From IMG/VR virus record IMGVR_UViG_2721755651_000013: DNA of 22,378 nucleotides; one strand, written 5' to 3'. Both the position numbers and the translations under genes were made by a program. Below, in pieces: positions 1,765-14,556 of this stretch. Numbering within the stretch: the first letter of the stretch is position 1; every line of letters begins with the position of its first letter. This stretch comes from a virus. Taxonomy: Duplodnaviria; Heunggongvirae; Uroviricota; Caudoviricetes. The notes below the pieces were generated by a model. That model made no database searches and had not been told where the DNA came from. It worked only from the letters and a program-made list of their open reading frames with translations.

Positions 1765-4098
1765 TTATTTCGCTGCAAACTCATCGCATTTTGGCAACCA
1801 GTCAGCATTGCTTTCCTCTCTTAGGGCCAGATTAGTCTGCATTCCTTGATTGGTCCGTCGTTTCTCATACTGCAGCCCATATTCCTTGAGCATTAACGGT
1901 AGCCCCTTGCCAAACATGGTCAGACTGAGCGTATTTTTATAGCCGTTAGCCTCCATGTAGACCAGATAGGCATGGTAGAGGTAAGTTCGAGGCTGACGTG
2001 GAACAATATTAGCGTTCCCCATAAACATGCCCGTGGTGTCAGGTAGGACCTCAAGGTAGCCGCAAAAATCAAAAGCTGAATCAGCATCACGTTTGATGGT
2101 GAGCGCTTCATCGGAGTTCTGCTGTGACTGAAGCAATGTCCTGGCACTCATTGGGTCGCTGAAACGCTGCATAAGCTGGCGAACAATCACCGCTAGCTCA
2201 CTGGCAATTTTCTCTTTGAGCTGGGTATCGCGTTCCTCCGGGGCTATCTGGTCGGGGAAATGCAGGATCACCCTTCGGCGTGAAACTCCACCACTACGAT
2301 CAGTGAAGCGCATCGGATTATTGTTCACAGCCAGGATGACCGCCGGGATGTGGGTTGAATAGGCGTTCTGATATTTGGGATCAACGGATACCGCATCGCC
2401 GCCAGTGATGGCTTTTAGTCCGGCCCCGTCACCGCTCCACTTTTCCTGGTCGGGAAGTCGAATCAGTGAAAAACCTATTAACGCAGCTCGTTCTCTTGGC
2501 GACTCAAGCATTTCAATGGTTGCCGAGGTCGCGTTATCTTCACCCGCCAGCATGGTTGCTATTTCAGCAAGAATACTCTTTCCACTTCCGCCAGGGCCAG
2601 TGACCTCCAGAAACAGCTGCCAGTCATAACGGTTAGCCAGCACCATAAACAATGCAGCCAGAATAATGTCCCGTTTTTCAGGATTAAAACCTGCGGCACG
2701 ATCCAGCCAGCGCCAGAATGCCGGGGCATGGGTTTCCAGTGACTCACCGTCAACGGGCTGCGTGTAATCCACCTCGCACAGCGTACGTAACCAGTGCTTC
2801 TTATCGTGCGGGCTGAACAATCCTGTCCGGGTATCGAGCACACCGTTGCGAAATCCGATAAGTTGCCGCGCCGGATTCTGCTGTTGCGGAACGATCAGTT
2901 TGAGGGTTTCCACGAGAGACGCAATTTTCGCGGATGAAAAAGGTGCGTCGAGGCGCTGAAACAGCGCAGCGACATCACGGGCAAAATCGGCGTAATAGAT
3001 AACTTTCCAGGCCCCCGCCTCATAGCGTGAAAGGAGCTGCCCGTTCGGGTCTACTGCCAGTGAATTTTTATAGTGATCCACTACCCTCTGCGCTTTTTCG
3101 CTGACGCTCAGCGCGGTAAATTCAGCTTCGCTCATTGTGTCGAAGGGGCTGGCAACAGCTGGTTTTATTACTTCATGAATTGCATGCCGGGTGGCTTCTT
3201 CGCCGTTTTGCGTGAATGCATCGTTCCAGTCACCAAACACAGGCGGGAGCGCCATTGTGCAATTGCAGGCCCCGGTAACAGCTGCGCCCCTTGTTTGCCC
3301 CGCACCGTTGAGATCGCGGTCAGCAGCAATAATTATCTGGTGCGTTGGGTACTCACTGCAGGCAATGCTCGCCAGGGAAAGGAAATTGACGGACGAAAAG
3401 GCCACCATGACAGCATCGCCAGTCAGATAGTTGATAGTAAGTGCGGTGGCATATCCTTCCGCTATCCAGAGCCGTTTGGCTGCTTTGGCAGTACCTTCAA
3501 CCAGGTAAAAGGCATTCTTAACCTGACCGCCTTTAAGGAAGCATTTGCCCCCATTAGCGTTGATTAACTGCAGATTTACCAGCTCTCCATCTGCATACAA
3601 TGGAACGACAAGATCTCCCGCGCGAAATGCCACACCACCGACTTTATGCATAGCGGTTAATTCCCGGCAAGGCAGTGCAGGAAACCCTTTACTCGTCAGA
3701 TAGGCATTGCCAGTGGTCTGGCGGGACTTATCAAACAAACGGGCAGCCAGCACTGCTGCAGCTTTTCTCCCGTCCTCTTTTTCAGGAGAACCAGATTCAA
3801 GCATTCCCTGAGATACTGGCAGCAGGTTTCCGATAATGCCGTTTATTCTGTCTGCCGCTTCACTAATGCCTACATCCAGTACTTTACTTACAAGCGCCAG
3901 GCCATCACCTGCCCCGCACTGGTTACAGAACCACGTTCCCCGCCCTTCCTGGTCATCAAATCGAAAGCGGTCTTTCCCGGCACAGACCGGGCAGGGCTGG
4001 TGCCGATTTTTCAGTACATTTACGCCCAGCGCAGGTAAAATTCTTGACCAGTGACCCCGAGCTGCTTTCTCAGCCTGGCTAACTTTCATTCCTGACAT
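1765..4098 (-). CDS. P4 alpha-type bifunctional primase/helicase (zinc-binding primase domain + TOPRIM + D5-type NTPase)
   Basis: Protein has CPVCAGKDRFRFDD...FCNQCG zinc motif, Walker A GPGGSGKS, and overall P4 alpha-like layout. Start moved to the ATG at 4096..4098 because AAGGAGG lies 8 nt upstream; this gives 777 aa. The ORF-track start at 4155 is probably an upstream extension. Confidence 0.9.
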   Translation of the reverse strand: MSGMKVSQAEKAARGHWSRILPALGVNVLKNRHQPCPVCAGKDRFRFDDQEGRGTWFCNQCGAGDGLALVSKVLDVGISEAADRINGIIGNLLPVSQGMLESGSPEKEDGRKAAAVLAARLFDKSRQTTGNAYLTSKGFPALPCRELTAMHKVGGVAFRAGDLVVPLYADGELVNLQLINANGGKCFLKGGQVKNAFYLVEGTAKAAKRLWIAEGYATALTINYLTGDAVMVAFSSVNFLSLASIACSEYPTHQIIIAADRDLNGAGQTRGAAVTGACNCTMALPPVFGDWNDAFTQNGEEATRHAIHEVIKPAVASPFDTMSEAEFTALSVSEKAQRVVDHYKNSLAVDPNGQLLSRYEAGAWKVIYYADFARDVAALFQRLDAPFSSAKIASLVETLKLIVPQQQNPARQLIGFRNGVLDTRTGLFSPHDKKHWLRTLCEVDYTQPVDGESLETHAPAFWRWLDRAAGFNPEKRDIILAALFMVLANRYDWQLFLEVTGPGGSGKSILAEIATMLAGEDNATSATIEMLESPRERAALIGFSLIRLPDQEKWSGDGAGLKAITGGDAVSVDPKYQNAYSTHIPAVILAVNNNPMRFTDRSGGVSRRRVILHFPDQIAPEERDTQLKEKIASELAVIVRQLMQRFSDPMSARTLLQSQQNSDEALTIKRDADSAFDFCGYLEVLPDTTGMFMGNANIVPRQPRTYLYHAYLVYMEANGYKNTLSLTMFGKGLPLMLKEYGLQYEKRRTNQGMQTNLALREESNADWLPKCDEFAAK

Positions 4099-4111
4099 TG
4101 TGCGGCCCTCC

Positions 4112-4435
4112 TTAGTGCAGCGCTGGTTTGTTGAGGTGACGGGAACAAAGTTCATCCATGACCGTCATTCCGAGCAGTGAGAGAACCGGACAGGCTTTAA
4201 GCGGCCCCGACTCCATCAGATCCGAAAGCAACGCGCAGGCAATTTCCAGCCCTCTTTGCTGCCCATGCTGGCGCAGATAGAACCCTTCCAGCTCGCGGGC
4301 TATGGCATCTTCAAGTTCAGCGAGCGTCAGGCCGGAATAACGTTCCTGATGATTGCTTAGAGCCAGCCAGGCACAGGCAACGGCACGGCGATACAGAGCG
4401 GCACGAAGTGCCAGAAGAGATTCACAGCATATCAT
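4112..4435 (-). CDS. Small hypothetical protein of the P4-like early (alpha) operon
   Basis: 107-aa ORF, GGAGGTG Shine-Dalgarno about 7 nt upstream, TGATG stop/start overlap with upstream ORF, same strand as and directly upstream of alpha. Function not assignable from sequence. Confidence 0.55.
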
Positions 4436-4656
4436 CAGGCCACCTCCGCATTCATCAGGTCGTCATGGCAGCGTTGCACCACTCCATCCAGTTGCTCTGT
4501 CATCAGATAAATGAGGGAAACCAGTTGTTCGCATTGGGCACCTGCTGGCTTTTCATAACAGTCCTGCAGGGCTGCCATGCCAGTTACATACTCACCCACA
4601 TTGCGTAAATGTTTCAGCCTTACAACATCGTCGTAGGAAATCTCAAACTGGTTCAT
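4435..4656 (-). CDS. Small hypothetical protein of the P4-like early operon
   Basis: 73-aa ORF with strong GGGGAGGTGA Shine-Dalgarno about 7 nt upstream of the ATG; coupled to the downstream ORF by a 1-nt overlap. Confidence 0.55.
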
Positions 4657-5467: not shown

Positions 5468-6020
5468 TTATCTACCCTCTTTAATTTCCACAACAGTCCG
5501 GATGAATTTATCCGGGTTCAGGTAGTTCCTTATTATGTGTATATAAACCACCTGCGCACGCATTTTTTATTTAGCGTCACATATTGATTTTATGGAATTT
5601 AAAGCCCGATTAAACCATATAAAATGACATAATAAATACCATGCCTGCGGACTATAAATACAGGAGCATTAATAGGAACTACCATTCACCCAGGGTTTAC
5701 TATCCTATGGGTCATTGCACCTGATAGTGCTAACCCCACCGCCAATACAGCAAGGCAGTACAACTTCTACACGAGGCCTTGCATTGCAGGCCCCAATTTC
5801 CGGGCATATTTTTGAATCGCATCCAACTTATAAACATTGGGCCTGCATAAAAACCTTGATATTAAATAACATCACCTTAAATCGTAAAATATATCCGAAT
5901 GAATCCATAAAGAACCGGACAGATCTAGTTTTATAAAAATCAGTATGAAATGCAACACCATGGCCAGAGGCGAAAATGTTATTCCCCGGCAAAAACATGC
6001 AGTCTATTTATGTGCCTGTT

Positions 6021-6054
6021 GAATACTCCTGAATAAGGGTGAATAGTGGTGAGG
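6021..6054. repeat. Three GAATA motifs at 10-bp phasing ending in GGTGAATAGTGGTGAGG; iteron-like
   Basis: gaatactcct gaataagggt gaatagtggt: GAATA at 6021, 6031, 6041 (helical phasing); GGTGAATA resembles the reverse complement of the P4 ori/crr octamer TGTTCACC (one mismatch, as I recall it). Confidence 0.35.
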
Positions 6055-6215
6055 AGCAAAAAACAAATAGCTACGAGGAATAAAAAAACCACCCATTATG
6101 AAAAAATACCATAAATAATTTTATTCCCATGTGAACAGTTATGAACAGTCGATGAATACTGCCATGCCAACCCTTCACCTTATAACCTTCTGTATTACCT
6201 ATTTTTTTTACCTAA

Positions 6216-6235
6216 GTGAATAGTAGTGAATAGTT
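6216..6235. repeat. Tandem 10-bp direct repeat GTGAATAGTA/GTGAATAGTT (iteron-like, same motif as 6039..6047)
   Basis: Two adjacent copies of GTGAATAGT seen directly; the same 9-mer also occurs at 6039..6047. Location in the alpA-sid intergenic region suits a replication or regulatory protein-binding array. Confidence 0.4.
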
Positions 6236-6312
6236 AAGGTAAGTCTGAAACAGCCTTAGTTAAACGAGGCCTTTTCTGGCTAGCCAAAAGAGGTCCGGGG
6301 CGGTTCAGTCTT

Positions 6313-6380
6313 TGTCTTGTCGCTCGCACAATGGCGTTCAATGGCAGCTTTGTATGCATCACAGCACAATTGACACCACG
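6313..6380 (+). promoter_or_regulatory. Putative Delta/Ogr-activated late promoter (Psid-like) with a TGT-N12-ACA dyad
   Basis: TGTcttgtcgctcgcACA at 6313..6330 and a second TGT-N12-ACA at 6351..6368; the first dyad is centred about 80 nt upstream of the sid ATG, i.e. near -55 if transcription starts about 25 nt upstream; CACAAT as a possible -10 at 6365..6370. The TGT-N12-ACA spacing is the known P2/P4 late-activator site pattern. Confidence 0.45.
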
Positions 6381-6400
6381 ACAAACCACTAGGTGCTGAC

Positions 6401-7153
6401 ATGACAATCCCAGAACAGAACAATAACCCGATCGTTGAAATTTCTATCCCTGTTTCGACGCAACAGGCGCTTGAGAAAGTGAATGCCACCAAATCTGCAT
6501 GGCTTGAAGCACGTCGTCAGCAAAAAGCGGCAGCGGATAATATTGCGACAATCCGCCAGCGCCGCGCTGAAATGGAAGCCACGACGAACGCCCTGAATGA
6601 GGAGTGGCGCACGCTATTTCGTGAAAGTCAGGGCGTAGTCTCAAAGGAAATGAAAAAACTGCGCACGGAAATTGCGCTGGGACGAGAAACGCTTGAGGAT
6701 TTTGATGAGCTGCTGGCGGCTCAGGAAAGCGAAAATGCACTTTTGCCGCAGGAGGCTGCGGAATTAGCCGGAAAGTATATCCACGCGCACGACACCCTTG
6801 TGGGTATTCGCGCAAAACAAATCTGGGAAGATTTTATGCAGTCGCATGGAAAAGCACTAATCCAGACACTAAGCCTGCTCAAATCAACAATGGGCAGGGA
6901 AGCCAGCGCAGTTGTCGGTGTGGTGCATTCAGTTAATGACCCGGACACACTGCTGAAAGATTTTATTCATAAACATATCACCAGACCGGCTCTGACTAAC
7001 GATGCGATGCCCGAACAGGACCCCGTGTTTAAACTGGCGGGAGTTGCCCCGGATTATGCGGCCCGTCTGGATTTCAGTAATAAACTCTCTCCAGCAGCTA
7101 TGCATAAAATGAAGGTTCGTCAGGAACGTGCTGAGAAGGAGAAAGCAGTATGA
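6401..7153 (+). CDS. sid: Sid-like capsid size-determination (external scaffold) protein
   Basis: 250 aa (P4 Sid is about 244 aa); first gene after the late promoter; shares the AWL...DFMQ.HG.AL motif with the next ORF, consistent with Sid and Psu being related; AGGTG Shine-Dalgarno. Confidence 0.65.
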   Translation: MTIPEQNNNPIVEISIPVSTQQALEKVNATKSAWLEARRQQKAAADNIATIRQRRAEMEATTNALNEEWRTLFRESQGVVSKEMKKLRTEIALGRETLEDFDELLAAQESENALLPQEAAELAGKYIHAHDTLVGIRAKQIWEDFMQSHGKALIQTLSLLKSTMGREASAVVGVVHSVNDPDTLLKDFIHKHITRPALTNDAMPEQDPVFKLAGVAPDYAARLDFSNKLSPAAMHKMKVRQERAEKEKAV

Positions 7154-8388: not shown

Positions 8389-8955
8389 TTAAACAGGATA
8401 AAAACCAGAGCTTCCATTCTTATTTAAGTTATGGATTTTATTTGCATCATTAATTTTTATTTGGAACGTCGGACCTTTATTCTCAAGAATTACAATCTGG
8501 AAATTATAGTCCCTTTTGATTAATGCGTGATAAAATGAATCACTGAGACTGACGCTATTAACATCCGATAGAGAACCCCCTCTATCTTTATCAAAGTGCG
8601 TCACTAATGGACTATCAAGCACAACAAATCCAATGAATGGATTCCCTTTTCTTGATAAAAATTCCGCAAAGCAAATGGTAAATATAGCATGCATTACTGC
8701 ACGGGTACCTTTACCAAACATTCCTCGGCGTTTCCCATTGATATTAAAGTCATATGTATCTTCGTCAAATCGCACTTTGTTATCTTTAGAATTTTCAAAA
8801 TTTATATCATTCAAAAAGTCTTGCATCGCTATTTCTATATCATACAAATCAGCTACTGTTAAGGAGTCAAAGTCCTCGGCGGAGTATTTAAGTTCGTCAA
8901 CATCATCTTCTTTATCTTGTAATGAAGATAGAATGCTATGTTTTGTGTGATCCAT
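8389..8955 (-). CDS. C-terminal ABC/SMC-type ATPase head segment (putative Walker B/D-loop region) of the cargo ATPase
   Basis: 188 aa; GMFGKGTRAVMHAIF (signature-like) followed by NPFIGFVVLDSPLVTHFD (hydrophobic strand + Asp, Walker-B-like); TAATG stop/start overlap with the upstream ORF; no Shine-Dalgarno; reading frame is open about 20 codons upstream of the ATG. Confidence 0.5.
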   Translation of the reverse strand: MDHTKHSILSSLQDKEDDVDELKYSAEDFDSLTVADLYDIEIAMQDFLNDINFENSKDNKVRFDEDTYDFNINGKRRGMFGKGTRAVMHAIFTICFAEFLSRKGNPFIGFVVLDSPLVTHFDKDRGGSLSDVNSVSLSDSFYHALIKRDYNFQIVILENKGPTFQIKINDANKIHNLNKNGSSGFYPV

Positions 8956-9545
8956 TAAAAGATTGTCTTTATATTCATAAAGTGATTCAAGAGATGAATG
9001 TATTGTTTTATATTTTTATCTTCTAACGTCTTAAAATCACTTTTTTCTGATTGATAAATTTCATTAACATCATTTTTTCTTAACATAATTAATTCATGTT
9101 CGCGAACATTAGATCCGATTGATTCAATTAATCCTTTCAGCTGGCTTTTGATTTTCAATTTTTCTGCATTACACGACAAAAAACAATCATCATATGATAT
9201 TTCATTTTCTTTTTTTTGCGGTGTATTACAGAACTCACAATAAATATCTGCAAAATTATTTAAATAGAAATTCGCCTGTGATACAACATCTATTCTTTGT
9301 AGATCTATAAAGTATTGGTCTTTAAGAAGACTAAATCTTTCAATGAGTAATGATAAGTATTTTTCCCTGTCACTGATTGAATATAATTCATCACTTAACT
9401 CTTTTAATAATTGCTTCTTATCATCAAGTGCATCAACAATACCTTTCAATATATCTTTCGATGATTCAATATCTTGCTCTACTTTCTCAAGTTCTCTTGA
9501 AACAATGACTTGATCATATTCAGGATAAATTAATTGCGCTTTCAA
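8955..9545 (-). CDS. Coiled-coil segment of the cargo SMC-like ATPase (no canonical start; same frame as the upstream ORF, separated by one TAA)
   Basis: 196 aa, highly charged (E/K/D/L-rich) helical heptad-like sequence; ORF-track start is TTG with no usable Shine-Dalgarno spacing; in frame with 9576..10208. Confidence 0.45.
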   Translation of the reverse strand: MKAQLIYPEYDQVIVSRELEKVEQDIESSKDILKGIVDALDDKKQLLKELSDELYSISDREKYLSLLIERFSLLKDQYFIDLQRIDVVSQANFYLNNFADIYCEFCNTPQKKENEISYDDCFLSCNAEKLKIKSQLKGLIESIGSNVREHELIMLRKNDVNEIYQSEKSDFKTLEDKNIKQYIHLLNHFMNIKTIF

Positions 9546-9575
9546 TTCCTCATAAATATTTGCAATTTGATTTTT

Positions 9576-10208
9576 TTAAAAATATCTTGCTTTTTTATTT
9601 GGTTTTTCTGCTAAGGAGTTAGTATCATCTCTCTGAGTTAAAAGGAATTTAAATTCAGACTTTCTTTTTGTCTCCTCGCTAGGAATATCAGAAAGAATTA
9701 ACGACTTCTCAGTTAACACTCTTAATTCATCAATACAAAAAAATTCAAAAACATTATTAAGATTAAATTTATGAAGAGTATTACTTAAGTTTGTTCTTAC
9801 TTTAGCCTCTTTGAAATTCAACCTACCATAAAAGTATGATGAAAAACTCTTTTTAGACGAAGCACTTTTGGAAAAAACCATCAACAGATTAGCTTCACTA
9901 ACATTTTCAATGCTCGAATCATATAATCTGTAATGGGCGCTATCCTGAAGAGACCTCTCAATTGTCATTACCCTACCTTGAAAATTAAATTCCAGATAGG
10001 CTAAATCATAACCTTGAGCATGATCGATATCTTTATTTTTTAGTTTTTCACTCCCTAATAAATATCGAATCAAATAATATATGTATGTTTTTCCAGAGTC
10101 AGAACCACCATATAAAATAGTCAATTTAGAACCAAATTCAATTATAGCATCTAATTTATTGAATCCGGTTACCTTTATTTTTCTGAACGTAAAAAAATTG
10201 TCATTCAT
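9576..10208 (-). CDS. N-terminal ABC/SMC-type ATPase head with Walker A (GGSDSGKT)
   Basis: MNDNFFTFRKIKVTGFNKLDAIIEFGSKLTILYGGSDSGKTYIYYL is the canonical N-terminal strand plus P-loop layout of RecF/SbcC/SMC-like ABC ATPases; start moved to the ATG at 10206..10208, which overlaps the upstream stop (ATGAATGA). Confidence 0.65.
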   Translation of the reverse strand: MNDNFFTFRKIKVTGFNKLDAIIEFGSKLTILYGGSDSGKTYIYYLIRYLLGSEKLKNKDIDHAQGYDLAYLEFNFQGRVMTIERSLQDSAHYRLYDSSIENVSEANLLMVFSKSASSKKSFSSYFYGRLNFKEAKVRTNLSNTLHKFNLNNVFEFFCIDELRVLTEKSLILSDIPSEETKRKSEFKFLLTQRDDTNSLAEKPNKKARYF

Positions 10209-10659
10209 AATTAAATTCCATATCATATTTGCCAATTTTATTTTTTATAATTGATTGCAACTGCTCATCAGGAATATCACTATATAACTTAACCACCAAA
10301 TTTATATTATGCTCCATCTGCGCAACATATTCATTATGTAGAGAATTTGTAAATGCATATGTTTTTTCAGAAGCTTTATATACAAAACCACGATGTGTAT
10401 AAATTTTTGAGGCTAGTTCATAGCCTTGCAACAAAGCCAATGATTCTAAAACAATCTCTCGTTTTAGGGCTAACTGAGCATCTCTACGGGGTATTGGAGG
10501 ATGAAGACTAATCTCTTCAGGTAAAAAATCCTTAAGATTTACTAAAATAAAATCAAAACAAATAAGCCGTTCAAGGCTTAATGAAGAAGGATAAATAGCG
10601 ACGAGCACTTTCGCCATTCGACATGCCACTTCTAAACTTGAATTATAAATTCTAACCAT
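10201..10659 (-). CDS. Small alpha-helical protein, putative middle component (LmuC-like) of a three-component ATPase system
   Basis: 152 aa when started at the ATG at 10657..10659 (TAATG overlap with upstream stop, GGTGAG upstream); located between the nuclease-like ORFs and the ATPase, as in ABC-3C/Lamassu type II loci. Assigned by position and size only. Confidence 0.5.
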   Translation of the reverse strand: MVRIYNSSLEVACRMAKVLVAIYPSSLSLERLICFDFILVNLKDFLPEEISLHPPIPRRDAQLALKREIVLESLALLQGYELASKIYTHRGFVYKASEKTYAFTNSLHNEYVAQMEHNINLVVKLYSDIPDEQLQSIIKNKIGKYDMEFNYE

Positions 10660-11276
10660 TATCTCACCGTCCAAATTACTTCACCATCATTAACCAAATG
10701 ATGGCATATTCCTTTTTTATCATTTGCTTCACATATTTTTGATAGTACTGAATGTGCAATTGGTGTCAGAACAGCCTGCTTCAAGACTGCATTACACCTA
10801 ATAAATGCATAATTATGGTCTTCATAAAAGACGGGTTCAATTGAAGATGAAATGTAACATTTCAATGCTTTGAATACATCATCTTTAAATACTTCGCGGA
10901 CAAAAACCTCAAGCGAAGATGCAAAATAAAAATCATTTCTACTATTATTAAAGTGTCGTCTGTATGGATCATCAAGCTCTAAGAAAGAACTATAAGTTTT
11001 ATTTCCATGCTCTGAATAGGCTTGAAGCAGTGCATTAACATATACAGACTCTTTTTTTGAATTGTATGTTGGAATTTCATTTGGAGGGATTCTCACGACA
11101 TACAGCTCGTTAAAGTACTTAAAATAAAGGTGTGTATTTGCAATATCATTTAAAATCAATGATAAGGGTAGAGAGTAAAAAATACTAAAATCAAAATCCT
11201 CAATATATTTTTTTATTTCATCATCTAATGGAATATCAATCTTTTTAGTTATTTTTTTGAAATTGCTGAATCCCAT
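10659..11276 (-). CDS. Hypothetical protein; probably the C-terminal part of the effector, reachable by a -1 shift from 11249..11665
   Basis: 205 aa; only one Met (the start) and no Shine-Dalgarno; overlaps the upstream ORF by 28 nt in the -1 frame across an A7 tract. Confidence 0.5.
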   Translation of the reverse strand: MGFSNFKKITKKIDIPLDDEIKKYIEDFDFSIFYSLPLSLILNDIANTHLYFKYFNELYVVRIPPNEIPTYNSKKESVYVNALLQAYSEHGNKTYSSFLELDDPYRRHFNNSRNDFYFASSLEVFVREVFKDDVFKALKCYISSSIEPVFYEDHNYAFIRCNAVLKQAVLTPIAHSVLSKICEANDKKGICHHLVNDGEVIWTVR

Positions 11277-11665
11277 GAATCAAGGACTGCTTTTTTAAGC
11301 TCGTTTTTATTTTTCAATAAATTAGAAAATGTAGTAGATAAATCATAGGGTGCCACAAAAAAGTACTTCTGAGGGATGGGATAATCACCATTCAGAGTAA
11401 AATAGATAAGTTTTCCAAACTCAACTACAACATCAGAGAACCCTAAACTTTTTTTGTACAGTTTGCATTGATAATTATCCCAAGAATAACCTTCTACGTT
11501 AGGATCCGATTTATATCCAACAACGTCTCTACCTTTATCTCCAGCTCCTCCCAAACGTTCGCTCCACGGGTAATCATCTGATTTACAGACAATAAGCCAA
11601 TCATGGACAAATACCTCCCATTGTTCATCATCCCATGTCAATATTTCCGAAAGTGGTTGAGACAC
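11249..11665 (-). CDS. Mrr-like PD-(D/E)xK nuclease domain protein (putative effector N-terminal domain)
   Basis: 138 aa; WEVFVHDWL...GGAGDKGRDVVGY...YQCKLY matches the E ... G-D-x-G-x-D ... Q-x-K pattern of Mrr-type restriction-endonuclease catalytic domains; GTG start with AAGGAG 7 nt upstream, embedded in the 3' end of int. Confidence 0.6.
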   Translation of the reverse strand: MSQPLSEILTWDDEQWEVFVHDWLIVCKSDDYPWSERLGGAGDKGRDVVGYKSDPNVEGYSWDNYQCKLYKKSLGFSDVVVEFGKLIYFTLNGDYPIPQKYFFVAPYDLSTTFSNLLKNKNELKKAVLDSWDSAISKK

Positions 11666-11668
11666 AAA

Positions 11669-12850
11669 TTAACTCCTTTTTAGTCTTTCAAATATCAAAT
11701 TACTGTACCAGTCCATCATAGACTTCCTTCCACTAAAATATTGAGCATGGTTATAAGTCCCCCTAATAGAATTTTTATCTACATGAGCCAACTGGATTTC
11801 AATCCAAGCACTCTCAAAACCTTGCTCATGCAGGATTGTAGAAAGGGTATGACGAAAACCATGTCCAGTGACTTTTCCTCCATACCCAATACGCTTAATG
11901 GCTTGATTTATACTCGCTTCGCTCATTGGCCTATTCGGATCGTTCCGCCCTGGAAAAACATAACGATAGTTCCCTGTCATGATCTTGAGTTCATTGAGTA
12001 AATCTACCGCTTGAGATGATAAGGGCACAAGATGTGGCCTACGCATTTTCATCCTTTCAGCAGGAATTTCCCAAATAGCGTTATCCAGATCAAATTCTTG
12101 CCATAATGCCGCGCGTAATTCGATGGTTCTCACACCCGTAATCATCAGTAATTTCGTGGCTATCTGGACAAGCTTACTCCCGGAGTAACCCTCTAAGGCA
12201 CGTAGAAAATCAGGTATCTCATCAGCTTTTAGGAATGGGAAATGATTGGATTGGTGTACTTCGAGAGCGCTGGAGAGATCAGCCGCAGGATTGTACTCCG
12301 CCCTACCCGTTGCAATTGCGTAGCGAAACACTTCGGAGCAACGCTGCCGCACTTTGCGCATTTTCTCCAACGCACCACGTTTCTCAATTTTACGCAGAAC
12401 GTTCAGCAGCTCTAGCGGTTTAATCTCTCCCACAGGCCTTGTTCCGACATAAGGAAAAATGTCGTTCTTAAACGCTTCCATGATGTCTGATGCATATCCC
12501 GCCGACCATTTAGCAGATTTAAGTTGATGCCACTCTCTGGCTATCTTTTCGAAGGCGTTCTCTGACTCTGTTTGCATAGCTAGCTTTTGCTCTTTTCGAA
12601 CCTCACTAGGGTTCTTTCCTTCTGCCACAAGTTTTCGAGCTTCATCACGACGGGAACGAGCATCGGCAAGGGTGATCGTTGGGTAAACACCAAGCGAGAT
12701 CATTTTGGGTTTGCCGGCATAGCGATAGCGGAACCGCCAACTCTTGCTTCCATTAGGTTCTATAAGTAATGACAACCCTAGCCCATCTCCAAATGTATAG
12801 GCTTTAGCTTCAGGCTTAGCGCGGCGAATCTGCATATCGTTTAAAGGCAT
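11669..12850 (-). CDS. int: P4-type tyrosine integrase
   Basis: N-terminus MPLNDMQIRRAKPEAKAY...DGLGLSLLIEPNGSKSWRFRYR is the P4-integrase N-terminal signature; C-terminal HGFRHT...Y catalytic motifs; start moved to the ATG at 12848..12850 (393 aa); adjacent to a tRNA-derived att. Confidence 0.9.
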   Translation of the reverse strand: MPLNDMQIRRAKPEAKAYTFGDGLGLSLLIEPNGSKSWRFRYRYAGKPKMISLGVYPTITLADARSRRDEARKLVAEGKNPSEVRKEQKLAMQTESENAFEKIAREWHQLKSAKWSAGYASDIMEAFKNDIFPYVGTRPVGEIKPLELLNVLRKIEKRGALEKMRKVRQRCSEVFRYAIATGRAEYNPAADLSSALEVHQSNHFPFLKADEIPDFLRALEGYSGSKLVQIATKLLMITGVRTIELRAALWQEFDLDNAIWEIPAERMKMRRPHLVPLSSQAVDLLNELKIMTGNYRYVFPGRNDPNRPMSEASINQAIKRIGYGGKVTGHGFRHTLSTILHEQGFESAWIEIQLAHVDKNSIRGTYNHAQYFSGRKSMMDWYSNLIFERLKRS

Positions 12851-13058: not shown

Positions 13059-13405
13059 TATAAGAATCCGCTTCTAATTCAAAGCATTACCCCATCAACA
13101 CTGCGCTCACACGTCCCACCACATCAAAACATGTAAAGCCTTGCAAGCCATTGCGAGGCCTTATGTGTCTCAGTTTTGTCCCACCTTGTATTACGACTTG
13201 CATAGCCAATGAAGATAAACGTGACGACAAACGGCGCAGCAGTCTTCTTTTCTTTCACGACTTCTCCAGCATGCATACCTTTCTGCCATGACTGAAGTGA
13301 ATGCCTGTTATGAGCAAGGATTGGCCCAGATGAATCGCCCTGGACTGTTGCGATCGTGAAGCCATAGACTGGGCCGCAAGCACGGGAGGTTACGATAAAG
13401 CGACA

Positions 13406-13771
13406 GTGCAGGATGTCATGTTAGGAGCGATAGAAAAACGCTTTGGCGATAAAGTACCGGAACAGTCCATCCAGTGGCTGACAGATAACGGTTCAGCGTA
13501 TAGAGCGCATGAAACACGGCAGTTCGCCAGAGAGTTGAATCTGGAGCCCTGCACAACGGCAATCAGCAGTCCTCAGAGTAATGGAATTGCAGAAAGGTTC
13601 GTGAAAACGATGAAGGAAGACTACATCGCGTTCATGCCGAAACCGAATGTAAGAACGGCATTGCATAATCTTGCAGTGGCGATCGAACATTACAATGAAA
13701 ACCATCCGCACAGTGCGTTGGGTTATCGCTCTCCGCGAGAATATCGACGTCAGCGGGTAACGTTAACTTAA
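13406..13771 (+). pseudogene. IS3-family (IS2-like) transposase OrfB C-terminal fragment
   Basis: 121-aa ORF ends ...[23 protein letters not shown]...[19 protein letters not shown], the typical C-terminus of IS3-family integrase-core transposases; the N-terminal part and OrfA are absent, so this is a remnant. Confidence 0.65.
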
Positions 13772-13812
13772 GATACCCCCCCTGTCTGGAAATAAGGGGG
13801 CAAGAACAATGA

Positions 13813-14556
13813 TCAGATTCCCTGGTGAGTAAGAATTTTACTTTCTGAACTCCTCTGAGAGTATTGACTTGGAGAAACACCAAAATAACGTCTAAATACA
13901 TAAGTAAAGTATGAGACACTGGCATAACCACAGACCTTAGCTACTTTACTAATAGGATAACAACGAGTGCTGAGTAAATATTCAGCCATTTGCATCCTCT
14001 CATCAAGTATGATCTTACTGAATGATACCCCCTCTTCTTTCAATTTCCTCTTTAGTAAACTTTCGCTGAGATATAATCTTGATGATATATCCTTAAGACG
14101 CCATGGTGCAGATAAATCCGTATGAATAATCGTTTTAACTTTAGCCCCTGTGCTTTTCAAACATCCAAACAGAAATACTCCAAATTGTTTTTCAGAAGAA
14201 AATGCAGAGAGACATGTAAAAGCAATAGACTCATCAAAAATTTCTATGTATTCAGCACAGTGATTAGCCCAACTAATTAATCCTTTAATTAAACTGAAGT
14301 CAGCAAAGTTTATTTTTAAATAAGATGGATATTCCCTACAATCAGAAATATCCCTTAAGTTATTAGCTTTCAAATAGCGACTAATAAACTCAGCGCCAAA
14401 ATCCGCCACTATCACTCTTTCAGGATATGTCAGGAAAAAATCTCTAGAGCTAGAGTCGACAAGTACAGATGAACCTCTCTCCAGAAACACACTCTCTTTT
14501 CCGAAATAAACATCAAAGGACTCCAAAATCAATATAACTGAACATGTAGTTGCCAT
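13813..14556 (-). CDS. AraC/XylS-family transcriptional regulator (Rns/AggR/GadX-like size and layout)
   Basis: 247 aa, AT-rich; C-terminal ISKVAKVCGYASVSYFTYVFRRYFGVSPSQY is the second helix-turn-helix of the AraC family. Confidence 0.8.
   Translation of the reverse strand: MATTCSVILILESFDVYFGKESVFLERGSSVLVDSSSRDFFLTYPERVIVADFGAEFISRYLKANNLRDISDCREYPSYLKINFADFSLIKGLISWANHCAEYIEIFDESIAFTCLSAFSSEKQFGVFLFGCLKSTGAKVKTIIHTDLSAPWRLKDISSRLYLSESLLKRKLKEEGVSFSKIILDERMQMAEYLLSTRCYPISKVAKVCGYASVSYFTYVFRRYFGVSPSQYSQRSSESKILTHQGI

Follow-up and report, generated by a model that had tools for sequence, protein, structure and literature searches.

The split lmuA gene of the Escherichia coli O157:H7 prophage Sp2/CP-933I: a fixed one-base deletion in a probable Lamassu remnant

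Gene content of the lmu locus

The window, a stretch of 22,378 nucleotides held as IMG/VR virus record IMGVR_UViG_2721755651_000013, is identical in sequence to Escherichia coli O157:H7 EDL933 and Sakai. Within it, the 3.3-kb lmu locus (31% G+C) is part of the P4-like satellite prophage Sp2/CP-933I, in which it is flanked by the integrase gene and by ogr/psu/sid. The int-psu interval of P4-like satellites is a defence hotspot (PMC9122126). One border of that hotspot is the P4-type tyrosine integrase of Sp2/CP-933I at 11669..12850, minus strand, assigned from its Pfam Arm-DNA-bind_3, Phage_int_M and Phage_integrase matches and from genome annotations. No tRNA gene was found within the window.

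All features described below are on the minus strand. Two overlapping ORFs, ORF A of 138 amino acids (11249..11665) and ORF B of 205 amino acids (10659..11276), encode an Mrr-like PD-(D/E)xK nuclease domain and a linker with a CTD6 docking/oligomerisation domain (Pfam CTD6, 7.7e-30), respectively. A single 336-position PADLOC model for LmuA (PDLC03852) covers both, ORF A at positions 10-140 (E 9e-41) and ORF B at positions 141-333. ORF A and ORF B are the 5' and 3' halves of one gene, lmuA, in a Lamassu (ABC-3C) operon with the order lmuA-lmuC-lmuB; Lamassu and ABC-3C form one superfamily (PMC10586767). The gene lmuC (10201..10659) is intact and encodes a 152-aa ABC-3C middle component 2 (Pfam MC2, 6e-30; PADLOC LmuC, 2.5e-36; RefSeq annotation), which supplies the middle component expected of a Lamassu/ABC-3C system. 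The last gene, lmuB (8389..10208), was delimited by tblastn as a pseudogene for an SMC/Rad50-like ABC ATPase of ancestrally 606 aa and now consists of ORFs 9576-10208, 8955-9545 and 8389-8955. Along the operon, Pfam thus reports CTD6 for ORF B, then MC2 and then AAA_23/SMC_N for the two ORFs that follow, and PADLOC names the three genes LmuA, LmuC and LmuB. An LmuA effector complete with its C-terminal domain is obtained only after conceptual repair of lmuA. RefSeq gives each of the two lmuA halves and the three lmuB pieces an entry of its own, as a "hypothetical" or "ABC-three component system" protein, while the Sakai annotation lists lmuB as pseudogene ECs_0293.

A reading made from the sequence alone (hereafter the sequence-only reading) had taken ORF A for an Mrr-like effector domain that could be fused to a second domain, and the PADLOC LmuA halves and the Pfam CTD6 match show that it was right. 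Residues D47, Q66 and K68, which make up the D...Q-x-K nuclease signature, are invariant in 24-30 homologs and are kept in ORF A. Pfam Mrr_cat matches two of 24 homologs and does not match ORF A itself, and a profile search against PDB sequences gave no significant match. The fold was read from an AlphaFold model of a Xenorhabdus orthologue (P0001, 67% identical to the conceptual fusion; pLDDT 92.8) and not from the O157 sequence. With this orthologue model, Foldseek returned solved LmuA chains as the best PDB matches, followed by the nuclease domains of Cap4, MspJI and FokI. The domain therefore carries both the signature and, as judged from the orthologue model, the restriction-endonuclease fold of Mrr-like PD-(D/E)xK nucleases.

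In its gene order the locus resembles a short (type II) Lamassu/ABC-3C system with an Mrr-type LmuA, and the resemblance extends to the individual proteins: LmuA combines an N-terminal PD-(D/E)xK nuclease with a helical C-terminal domain (Pfam CTD6), LmuC is an MC2 protein and LmuB is an SMC/Rad50-like ATPase of roughly 606 aa. The PADLOC models match the intact relative end to end, and the O157 locus sits, as Lamassu systems do, in a mobile-element defence hotspot. DdmABC of Vibrio cholerae is a solved relative of the short Lamassu system. The solved Lamassu complexes contain a Cap4-like nuclease, whereas O157 LmuA is Mrr-like. Unlike a working Lamassu system, moreover, the O157:H7 locus is a remnant: a 1-bp deletion divides lmuA, and lmuB is interrupted both by a 1-bp deletion and by a nonsense codon.

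The lmuA junction and its homologs

ORF A begins at a GTG codon preceded by the Shine-Dalgarno sequence AAGGAG and ends, on the minus strand, with ...GCA ATT TCA AAA AAA TAA. The A7 tract (11252-11258) and the stop codon (11249-11251) together read A AAA AAA TAA (11249..11258) and mark the site of the 1-bp deletion that splits lmuA. ORF B is offset by 389 nt from the ORF A start, which is equivalent to -1, and in that frame the same region reads ATG GGA TTC AGC AAT TTC AAA AAA ATA ACT. It contains a single Met codon, and no Shine-Dalgarno sequence precedes this ATG (AAAGCAGTCCTTGATTC ATG). The sequence-only reading had described the A-AAA-AAA heptamer with its stop, the -1 position of ORF B, the single Met and the missing Shine-Dalgarno sequence, and each of these was confirmed; its estimates of ~16 kDa and ~39 kDa likewise agree with the masses predicted for the ORF A product and the fusion, 15.9 kDa and 39.0 kDa. 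Either the addition of one A to the A7 tract or a -1 slip there yields a 335-aa protein reading ...AISKKITKKIDIPL... across the junction. The B frame is open only from two codons before the ATG, so that the window in which a change of frame can join the ORFs spans ~30 nt. The ATG itself (11276) arises out of frame, as the A+TGG of the invariant Trp131 codon, and xATGG is found in all intact relatives; this ATG is a by-product of that codon and not a demonstrated start. The non-random feature of the junction is that a single conserved protein is divided between the two ORFs.

A search with the conceptual fusion recovered 157 homologous proteins, nearly all of them single proteins of 330-380 aa covering 91-100% of the query. 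The junction motif WDxSISKKIT is conserved among the homologs, which align there without a gap. When one genome per species was scanned, a single ORF without stops was found to run through the junction in all 80 loci from other species. Their junction codons differ (GAG ATC ACG, AAA ATA ACT, etc.), and the 80 loci have no slippery motif in common at that place. In Proteus mirabilis, Pantoea alhagi, Xenorhabdus, Serratia and Aeromonas the junction is in frame within an uninterrupted protein, and the Aeromonas dhakensis gene has TCA AAA AAA ATT in frame, which is the O157 sequence plus one A. Intact operons encode an LmuA of 334-337 aa, an LmuC of 151-159 aa and an LmuB of 604-609 aa; the intact Serratia operon occupies the same P4-satellite position.

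When conceptually repaired LmuB was used as a query, 606-aa proteins were recovered from Proteus mirabilis (87% identity) and Pantoea alhagi (75% identity). The loci of both species encode uninterrupted LmuA, LmuC and LmuB proteins of 335, 152 and 606 aa, and their LmuA proteins are 92% (Proteus mirabilis) and 87% (Pantoea alhagi) identical to the conceptual O157 fusion. Short gene calls in Pantoea/Proteus (201 aa and 145 aa) were considered as independent splits of lmuA and rejected, since translation of the DNA gives intact 335-aa ORFs; the short calls are artefacts of a gene caller that missed the GTG start. A three-way alignment of O157, Proteus and Pantoea over the 3.28-kb operon contains only two indels, both of them 1-nt gaps in O157. 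The first falls in the junction tract (11252-11258), where the relatives read TCC AAT AAA ATA and TCA AAG AAA ATA; these closest relatives, Proteus and Pantoea, have no homopolymer at the junction position. The second falls in an A5 tract of lmuB (9013-9017), which is A6 in Proteus (GGT AAA AAA TAT).

Recoding signals and the length of the A tract

Were the junction a site of programmed -1 frameshifting (or of programmed transcriptional slippage), it would yield the 16-kDa nuclease and the 39-kDa LmuA fusion in a set ratio, as at dnaX and IS3 sites. The heptamer has the canonical form for this, X_XXY_YYZ in the zero frame ([TC]A AAA AAA TAA) with the stop immediately after it and the extension ORF in -1, and with dnaX/IS3 sites the junction shares the lysine-codon heptamer, the -1 downstream frame and the overlapping ORFs. 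A GGGA located 12 nt upstream resembles part of the dnaX AGGGAG element. A-rich heptamers are known to shift in E. coli (PMC4066793; PMC1851650), and -1 deletions are rescued to some degree by slippage at lysine codons (PMC1851650). However, an A_AAA_AAA heptamer by itself is not unusual in the lmu locus: the coding strand of the 3.3 kb has 14 A runs of at least 6 nt, including five A7 and one A8, and the ORFs hold four in-frame A_AAA_AAA heptamers, three of them besides the one at the junction. A stimulatory structure was sought in the 92 nt 3' of the tract and none was found; this segment folds at -5.9 kcal/mol versus -10.1 kcal/mol for shuffles (z = +1.65), more weakly than 195 of 200 shuffles. 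The upstream GGGA, like the ORF B ATG, is dictated by the invariant Trp131-Asp codons (xxA TGG GAy) and is present in every intact, unshifted relative.

The junction accordingly differs from dnaX/IS3 sites in having neither a stimulatory hairpin or pseudoknot nor a dedicated Shine-Dalgarno-like enhancer, and the last base of its heptamer is A, where G would be more efficient. Nor is the shift conserved phylogenetically, the lmuA homologs being in frame: lmuA is one ORF in each of the 80 distant loci and also in Proteus and Pantoea, whose genes are 87-92% identical and have non-slippery codons at the junction (AAT AAA ATA; AAG AAA ATA). In an E. coli reporter study, heptamers without stimulators shifted at only 2-10 times a background of ~0.055% (PMC4066793). 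Finally, the same operon has two breaks in lmuB, a gene that no Lamassu function can do without. With the arrangement absent from all homologs examined, no structure downstream and the partner ATPase gene broken, the programmed recoding that the sequence-only reading had put forward appears very unlikely. Whatever -1 slippage occurs at the A7 tract would be incidental, at a level well below about 1%.

In complete E. coli records the tract is A7 in 309 of 309 (308 genomes), among them O157:H7, O55:H7 and a pig isolate. These records were identified with a 71-nt A7 query at a match threshold of at least 99%, which for 71 nt means an exact match; a 112-nt A8 query had no perfect match among the 308 genomes, the best being 111/112. 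A7 is also found on five IMG/VR contigs and three metagenome contigs. These counts bear on the suggestion that the split is a homopolymer sequencing or assembly error and that the true genome has A8 and an intact lmuA. Homopolymer miscalls do occur, and one IMG/VR contig (L102) shows A8, in an assembly with 26 gap positions over 4.6 kb. The identical A7 in 309 independent records, Sakai and EDL933 among them, which were produced by many laboratories on many platforms, and again on the IMG/VR and metagenome contigs, argues so strongly against such an error that we give it next to no credence. That the tract is really A8, which the sequence-only reading had held open, is refuted by the A7 count.

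Beyond the complete E. coli genomes, the exact 335-aa A8 fusion protein is present on 434 contigs in a collection of 15 billion proteins, and A6 variants at the junction tract are present on 15 contigs. Control look-ups of the products expected from one A more or one A fewer at other A7 tracts of lmuA gave 2-24 contigs (2-5 for the +1 variants). We considered homopolymer miscalls as the origin of the 434 contigs and rejected them on account of this much lower background; the A8 allele is real and not noise. Partial proteins named Salmonella enterica at NCBI, some of serovar Brandenburg, run in the fused frame through the junction (...AISKKITKKIDI...), and at least some of the A8 contigs are likely to be Salmonella. 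The simplest reading of the A8 contigs is that they represent the ancestral intact lmuA allele surviving in another host of the element, from which its absence from the complete E. coli genomes would follow.

The A8 allele can also be viewed as the ON state of a phase-variable switch, in which slipped-strand mispairing between A7 and A8 would turn lmuA, a toxic abortive-infection effector, OFF and ON and allow its modulation by the host or by the satellite. The tract, a homopolymer within a toxic-effector gene, is mutable, and the exact predicted fusion on 434 contigs (versus 2-5 for control +1 variants), the Salmonella-labelled proteins in the fused frame and the A6 variants on 15 contigs are all consistent with such a switch, as is the polymorphism of a neighbouring A8 tract in lmuB, whose A7 form is on at least 1000 contigs. 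With homopolymer pseudogenes and contingency loci the junction shares a single-base poly-A change within a coding region, and other A tracts of the operon have indels in different strains. A phase-variable locus should, however, vary in tract length among close isolates, and within E. coli the tract is invariant: A7 in every record, whether O157:H7, O55:H7 or pig isolate, and A8 in 0 of 308 genomes. There the ON state could not restore function in any case, because lmuB is frameshifted and usually also carries the nonsense codon. Since the closest relatives have no homopolymer here, the tract arose recently through chance codon choice and is no conserved switch. True contingency loci differ from the O157 tract, which is short (7-8), not conserved in relatives and constant among the 308 E. 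coli genomes. As the A8 contigs are most simply explained by an ancestral allele in another host, we regard the phase-variable switch proposed by the sequence-only reading as improbable.

Lesions of lmuB and decay of the operon

The homology of lmuB is clear, both from its AAA_23 match and from tblastn with intact LmuB proteins of 604-609 aa, which also showed lmuB to contain a change of frame and an in-frame stop. The stop is a TAA nonsense codon at 9576..9578; O55:H7 DEC5D, Proteus and Pantoea have TTA (Leu) in its place. The nonsense codon is missing from DEC5D and also from a 417-aa read-through form of lmuB that occurs on 127 contigs and in L096. The frame change is caused by the A5 tract at 9013..9017, a second 1-bp homopolymer deletion (A6 in Proteus) placed by the gap in the three-way alignment. 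An earlier placement of this frameshift at CATTC near 8990, derived from Xenorhabdus homologs (~55% identical), was rejected when the 87%-identical Proteus gene located it in the A5 tract. The nonsense codon and the 1-nt deletion leave the operon without the intact LmuB that a Lamassu/ABC-3C system has. Further lesions are found in individual strains: in DEC5D the tract at 9046 is also shortened, from A6 to A5, the A8 tract at 9217 in lmuB lacks one A in several O157 genomes, and some strains have IS insertions. Because O55:H7 and O157:H7 have both the junction A7 and the deletion at 9017 in common, these two are the older events. None of 11 conceptual intact LmuB sequences of the O157 allele was found in the protein collection by exact matching, which is a weak test.

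Taken together, we consider that the junction represents a fixed one-base deletion and a loss-of-function pseudogene in a decaying Lamassu operon, with a probability of about 90%. Among the three readings offered from the sequence alone, which overall are only partly supported, the one-base indel is the one upheld, by all the evidence, with A8 (S-K-K-I-T) as the ancestral tract. Ancestral lmuA was a single ORF of 335 codons reading ...TCA AAA AAA ATA ACT... (S-K-K-I-T). The E. coli-type allele gained its uninterrupted A8 by synonymous or near-synonymous substitution and then lost one A, the change from A8 to A7 probably arising by replication slippage in the ancestor of the O55:H7/O157:H7 lineage. 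Ribosomes that start at the lmuA GTG would now stop at the TAA right after the tract, producing a 138-aa Mrr-like nuclease domain without the C-terminal domain, and the CTD6 half remains an ORF without a ribosome-binding site. Independently, the sensor gene lmuB is broken by its A6 to A5 deletion and by the nonsense codon. The lesions are observed directly, as are their fixation and the intact architecture of the ancestral operon. Replication slippage as the mechanism of the deletion is what we infer from them.

In the solved Lamassu complexes the LmuA C-terminal domain docks on the LmuB coiled coils and on LmuC and later brings about the tetramerisation by which the nuclease is activated (PMC12663957); where tested, defence needs all Lamassu components (PMC10586767). 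With an lmuA lacking its C-terminal domain, a CTD6 half lacking a ribosome-binding site and an lmuB in fragments, the system is presumably inert and decaying, and we infer loss of function of the O157 lmu operon. Once Lys-Lys-Ile codons in an AT-rich gene lose one A, the X_XXY_YYZ-plus-stop pattern results automatically. The junction pattern is that of an ordinary pseudogene. Inactivation of lmuA is recent, given that its fragments retain every invariant residue.

The free nuclease domain may have some residual, putative activity, and it is possible that traces of full-length LmuA are made by ribosomal or transcriptional slippage at the A7 tract and its stop. An extended version of this would have the A7-plus-stop leaky enough to give a little full-length LmuA, an ON/OFF toggle operating across hosts (A8 in Salmonella, A7 in E. 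coli) and selection for loss of LmuA once the breaking of lmuB had freed the nuclease from sequestration. The one observation that speaks for it is the existence of the A8 allele, and we think it a long shot.

If the junction is the fixed pseudogene that we consider it to be, the value of the split-lmuA finding is minor and lies in a correction of the annotation and in a counter-example. The lmuA halves and the lmuB pieces should be marked as pseudogenes, and Sp2/CP-933I of O157:H7 should not count as a working Lamassu system in censuses of defence systems. The finding also carries a caution about method: a "slippery heptamer plus stop" is the trace that a simple homopolymer deletion will leave in a defence gene rich in AT and Lys. 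A 2026 preprint reported that recognisable defence-gene pseudogenes are rare (<1%) in the hotspots of P4 satellites and argued that systems are swapped before they decay. The O157 locus is a clear counter-example, a Lamassu remnant with multiple lesions that has been kept across the whole O55:H7/O157:H7 radiation.

Lesions in lmuB and the adjoining flank

On the minus strand of the window lmuB, the gene encoding the SMC/Rad50-like ATPase of the Lamassu operon, is a pseudogene (8389-10208). It is broken twice, by the nonsense codon TAA at 9576-9578 and by the loss of one nucleotide from the A tract at 9013-9017. The three lmuB pieces appear as separate proteins in RefSeq PGAP records, and the annotation of the O157:H7 strain Sakai gives a pseudogene, ECs_0293. 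An A8 tract inside the gene (minus strand, 9210-9217) varies in length in the population; its A7 form, which leads to a 129-aa product, was found on at least 1000 contigs, several complete O157 genomes among them, and its A9 form on 24 contigs.

Between the satellite prophage Sp2 and the neighboring prophage Sp1, the interval 13400-14556 of the window holds a truncated IS3-family transposase remnant (annotated as ISEc48, partial) and the gene for an AraC-family regulator of 247 aa. Despite the P4-type integration site, no tRNA gene was detected across the entire window.

State of the locus in other strains

The same satellite immediately adjoins proBA in the locus L096 (GCA_002460865.1, NJVH01000015.1), which is without the Sp1 prophage, the IS remnant and the AraC block that O157:H7 has there. 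Here lmuB does not have the nonsense codon and is read as 417 + 188 aa, and lmuA is still A7; L096 is an intermediate stage in the decay of the Lamassu locus. Decay has gone further at the same locus in some O157:H7 strains, where an IS3-family element (IS1203-like) interrupts the lmuB remnant, as in L098 (CM000662.1, at 5934-7147 of that locus) and in record H71 (NZ_CP089270.1).

In a second Xenorhabdus strain (locus L004, JAKMXG010000055.1, 7459-8103) lmuB departs from its intact counterpart past codon 208 and stops 12 nt short of the contig end; the contig probably breaks off here at an insertion or a repeated element.

Intact lmuA in close relatives and the in-frame allele under Salmonella names

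Intact lmuA genes of 335 aa with a GTG start lie at 3543-4550 of the respective loci in Pantoea alhagi (CP019706.1) and Proteus mirabilis. Their gene tables give only C-terminal products (201 and 145 aa, respectively), which mimic a split gene and because of which both species were missed by the first protein search.

The cluster formed by P0123 (the 335-aa LmuA fusion protein), P0129 and P0134 includes Salmonella enterica names, serovar Brandenburg among them, with the same Lamassu allele and in-frame read-through of lmuA. These copies have an identical LmuA sequence and a LmuC with the M15I difference, as in the O55:H7 strain DEC5D, which suggests a transfer of one and the same P4-like element or cassette between Salmonella and E. 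coli.
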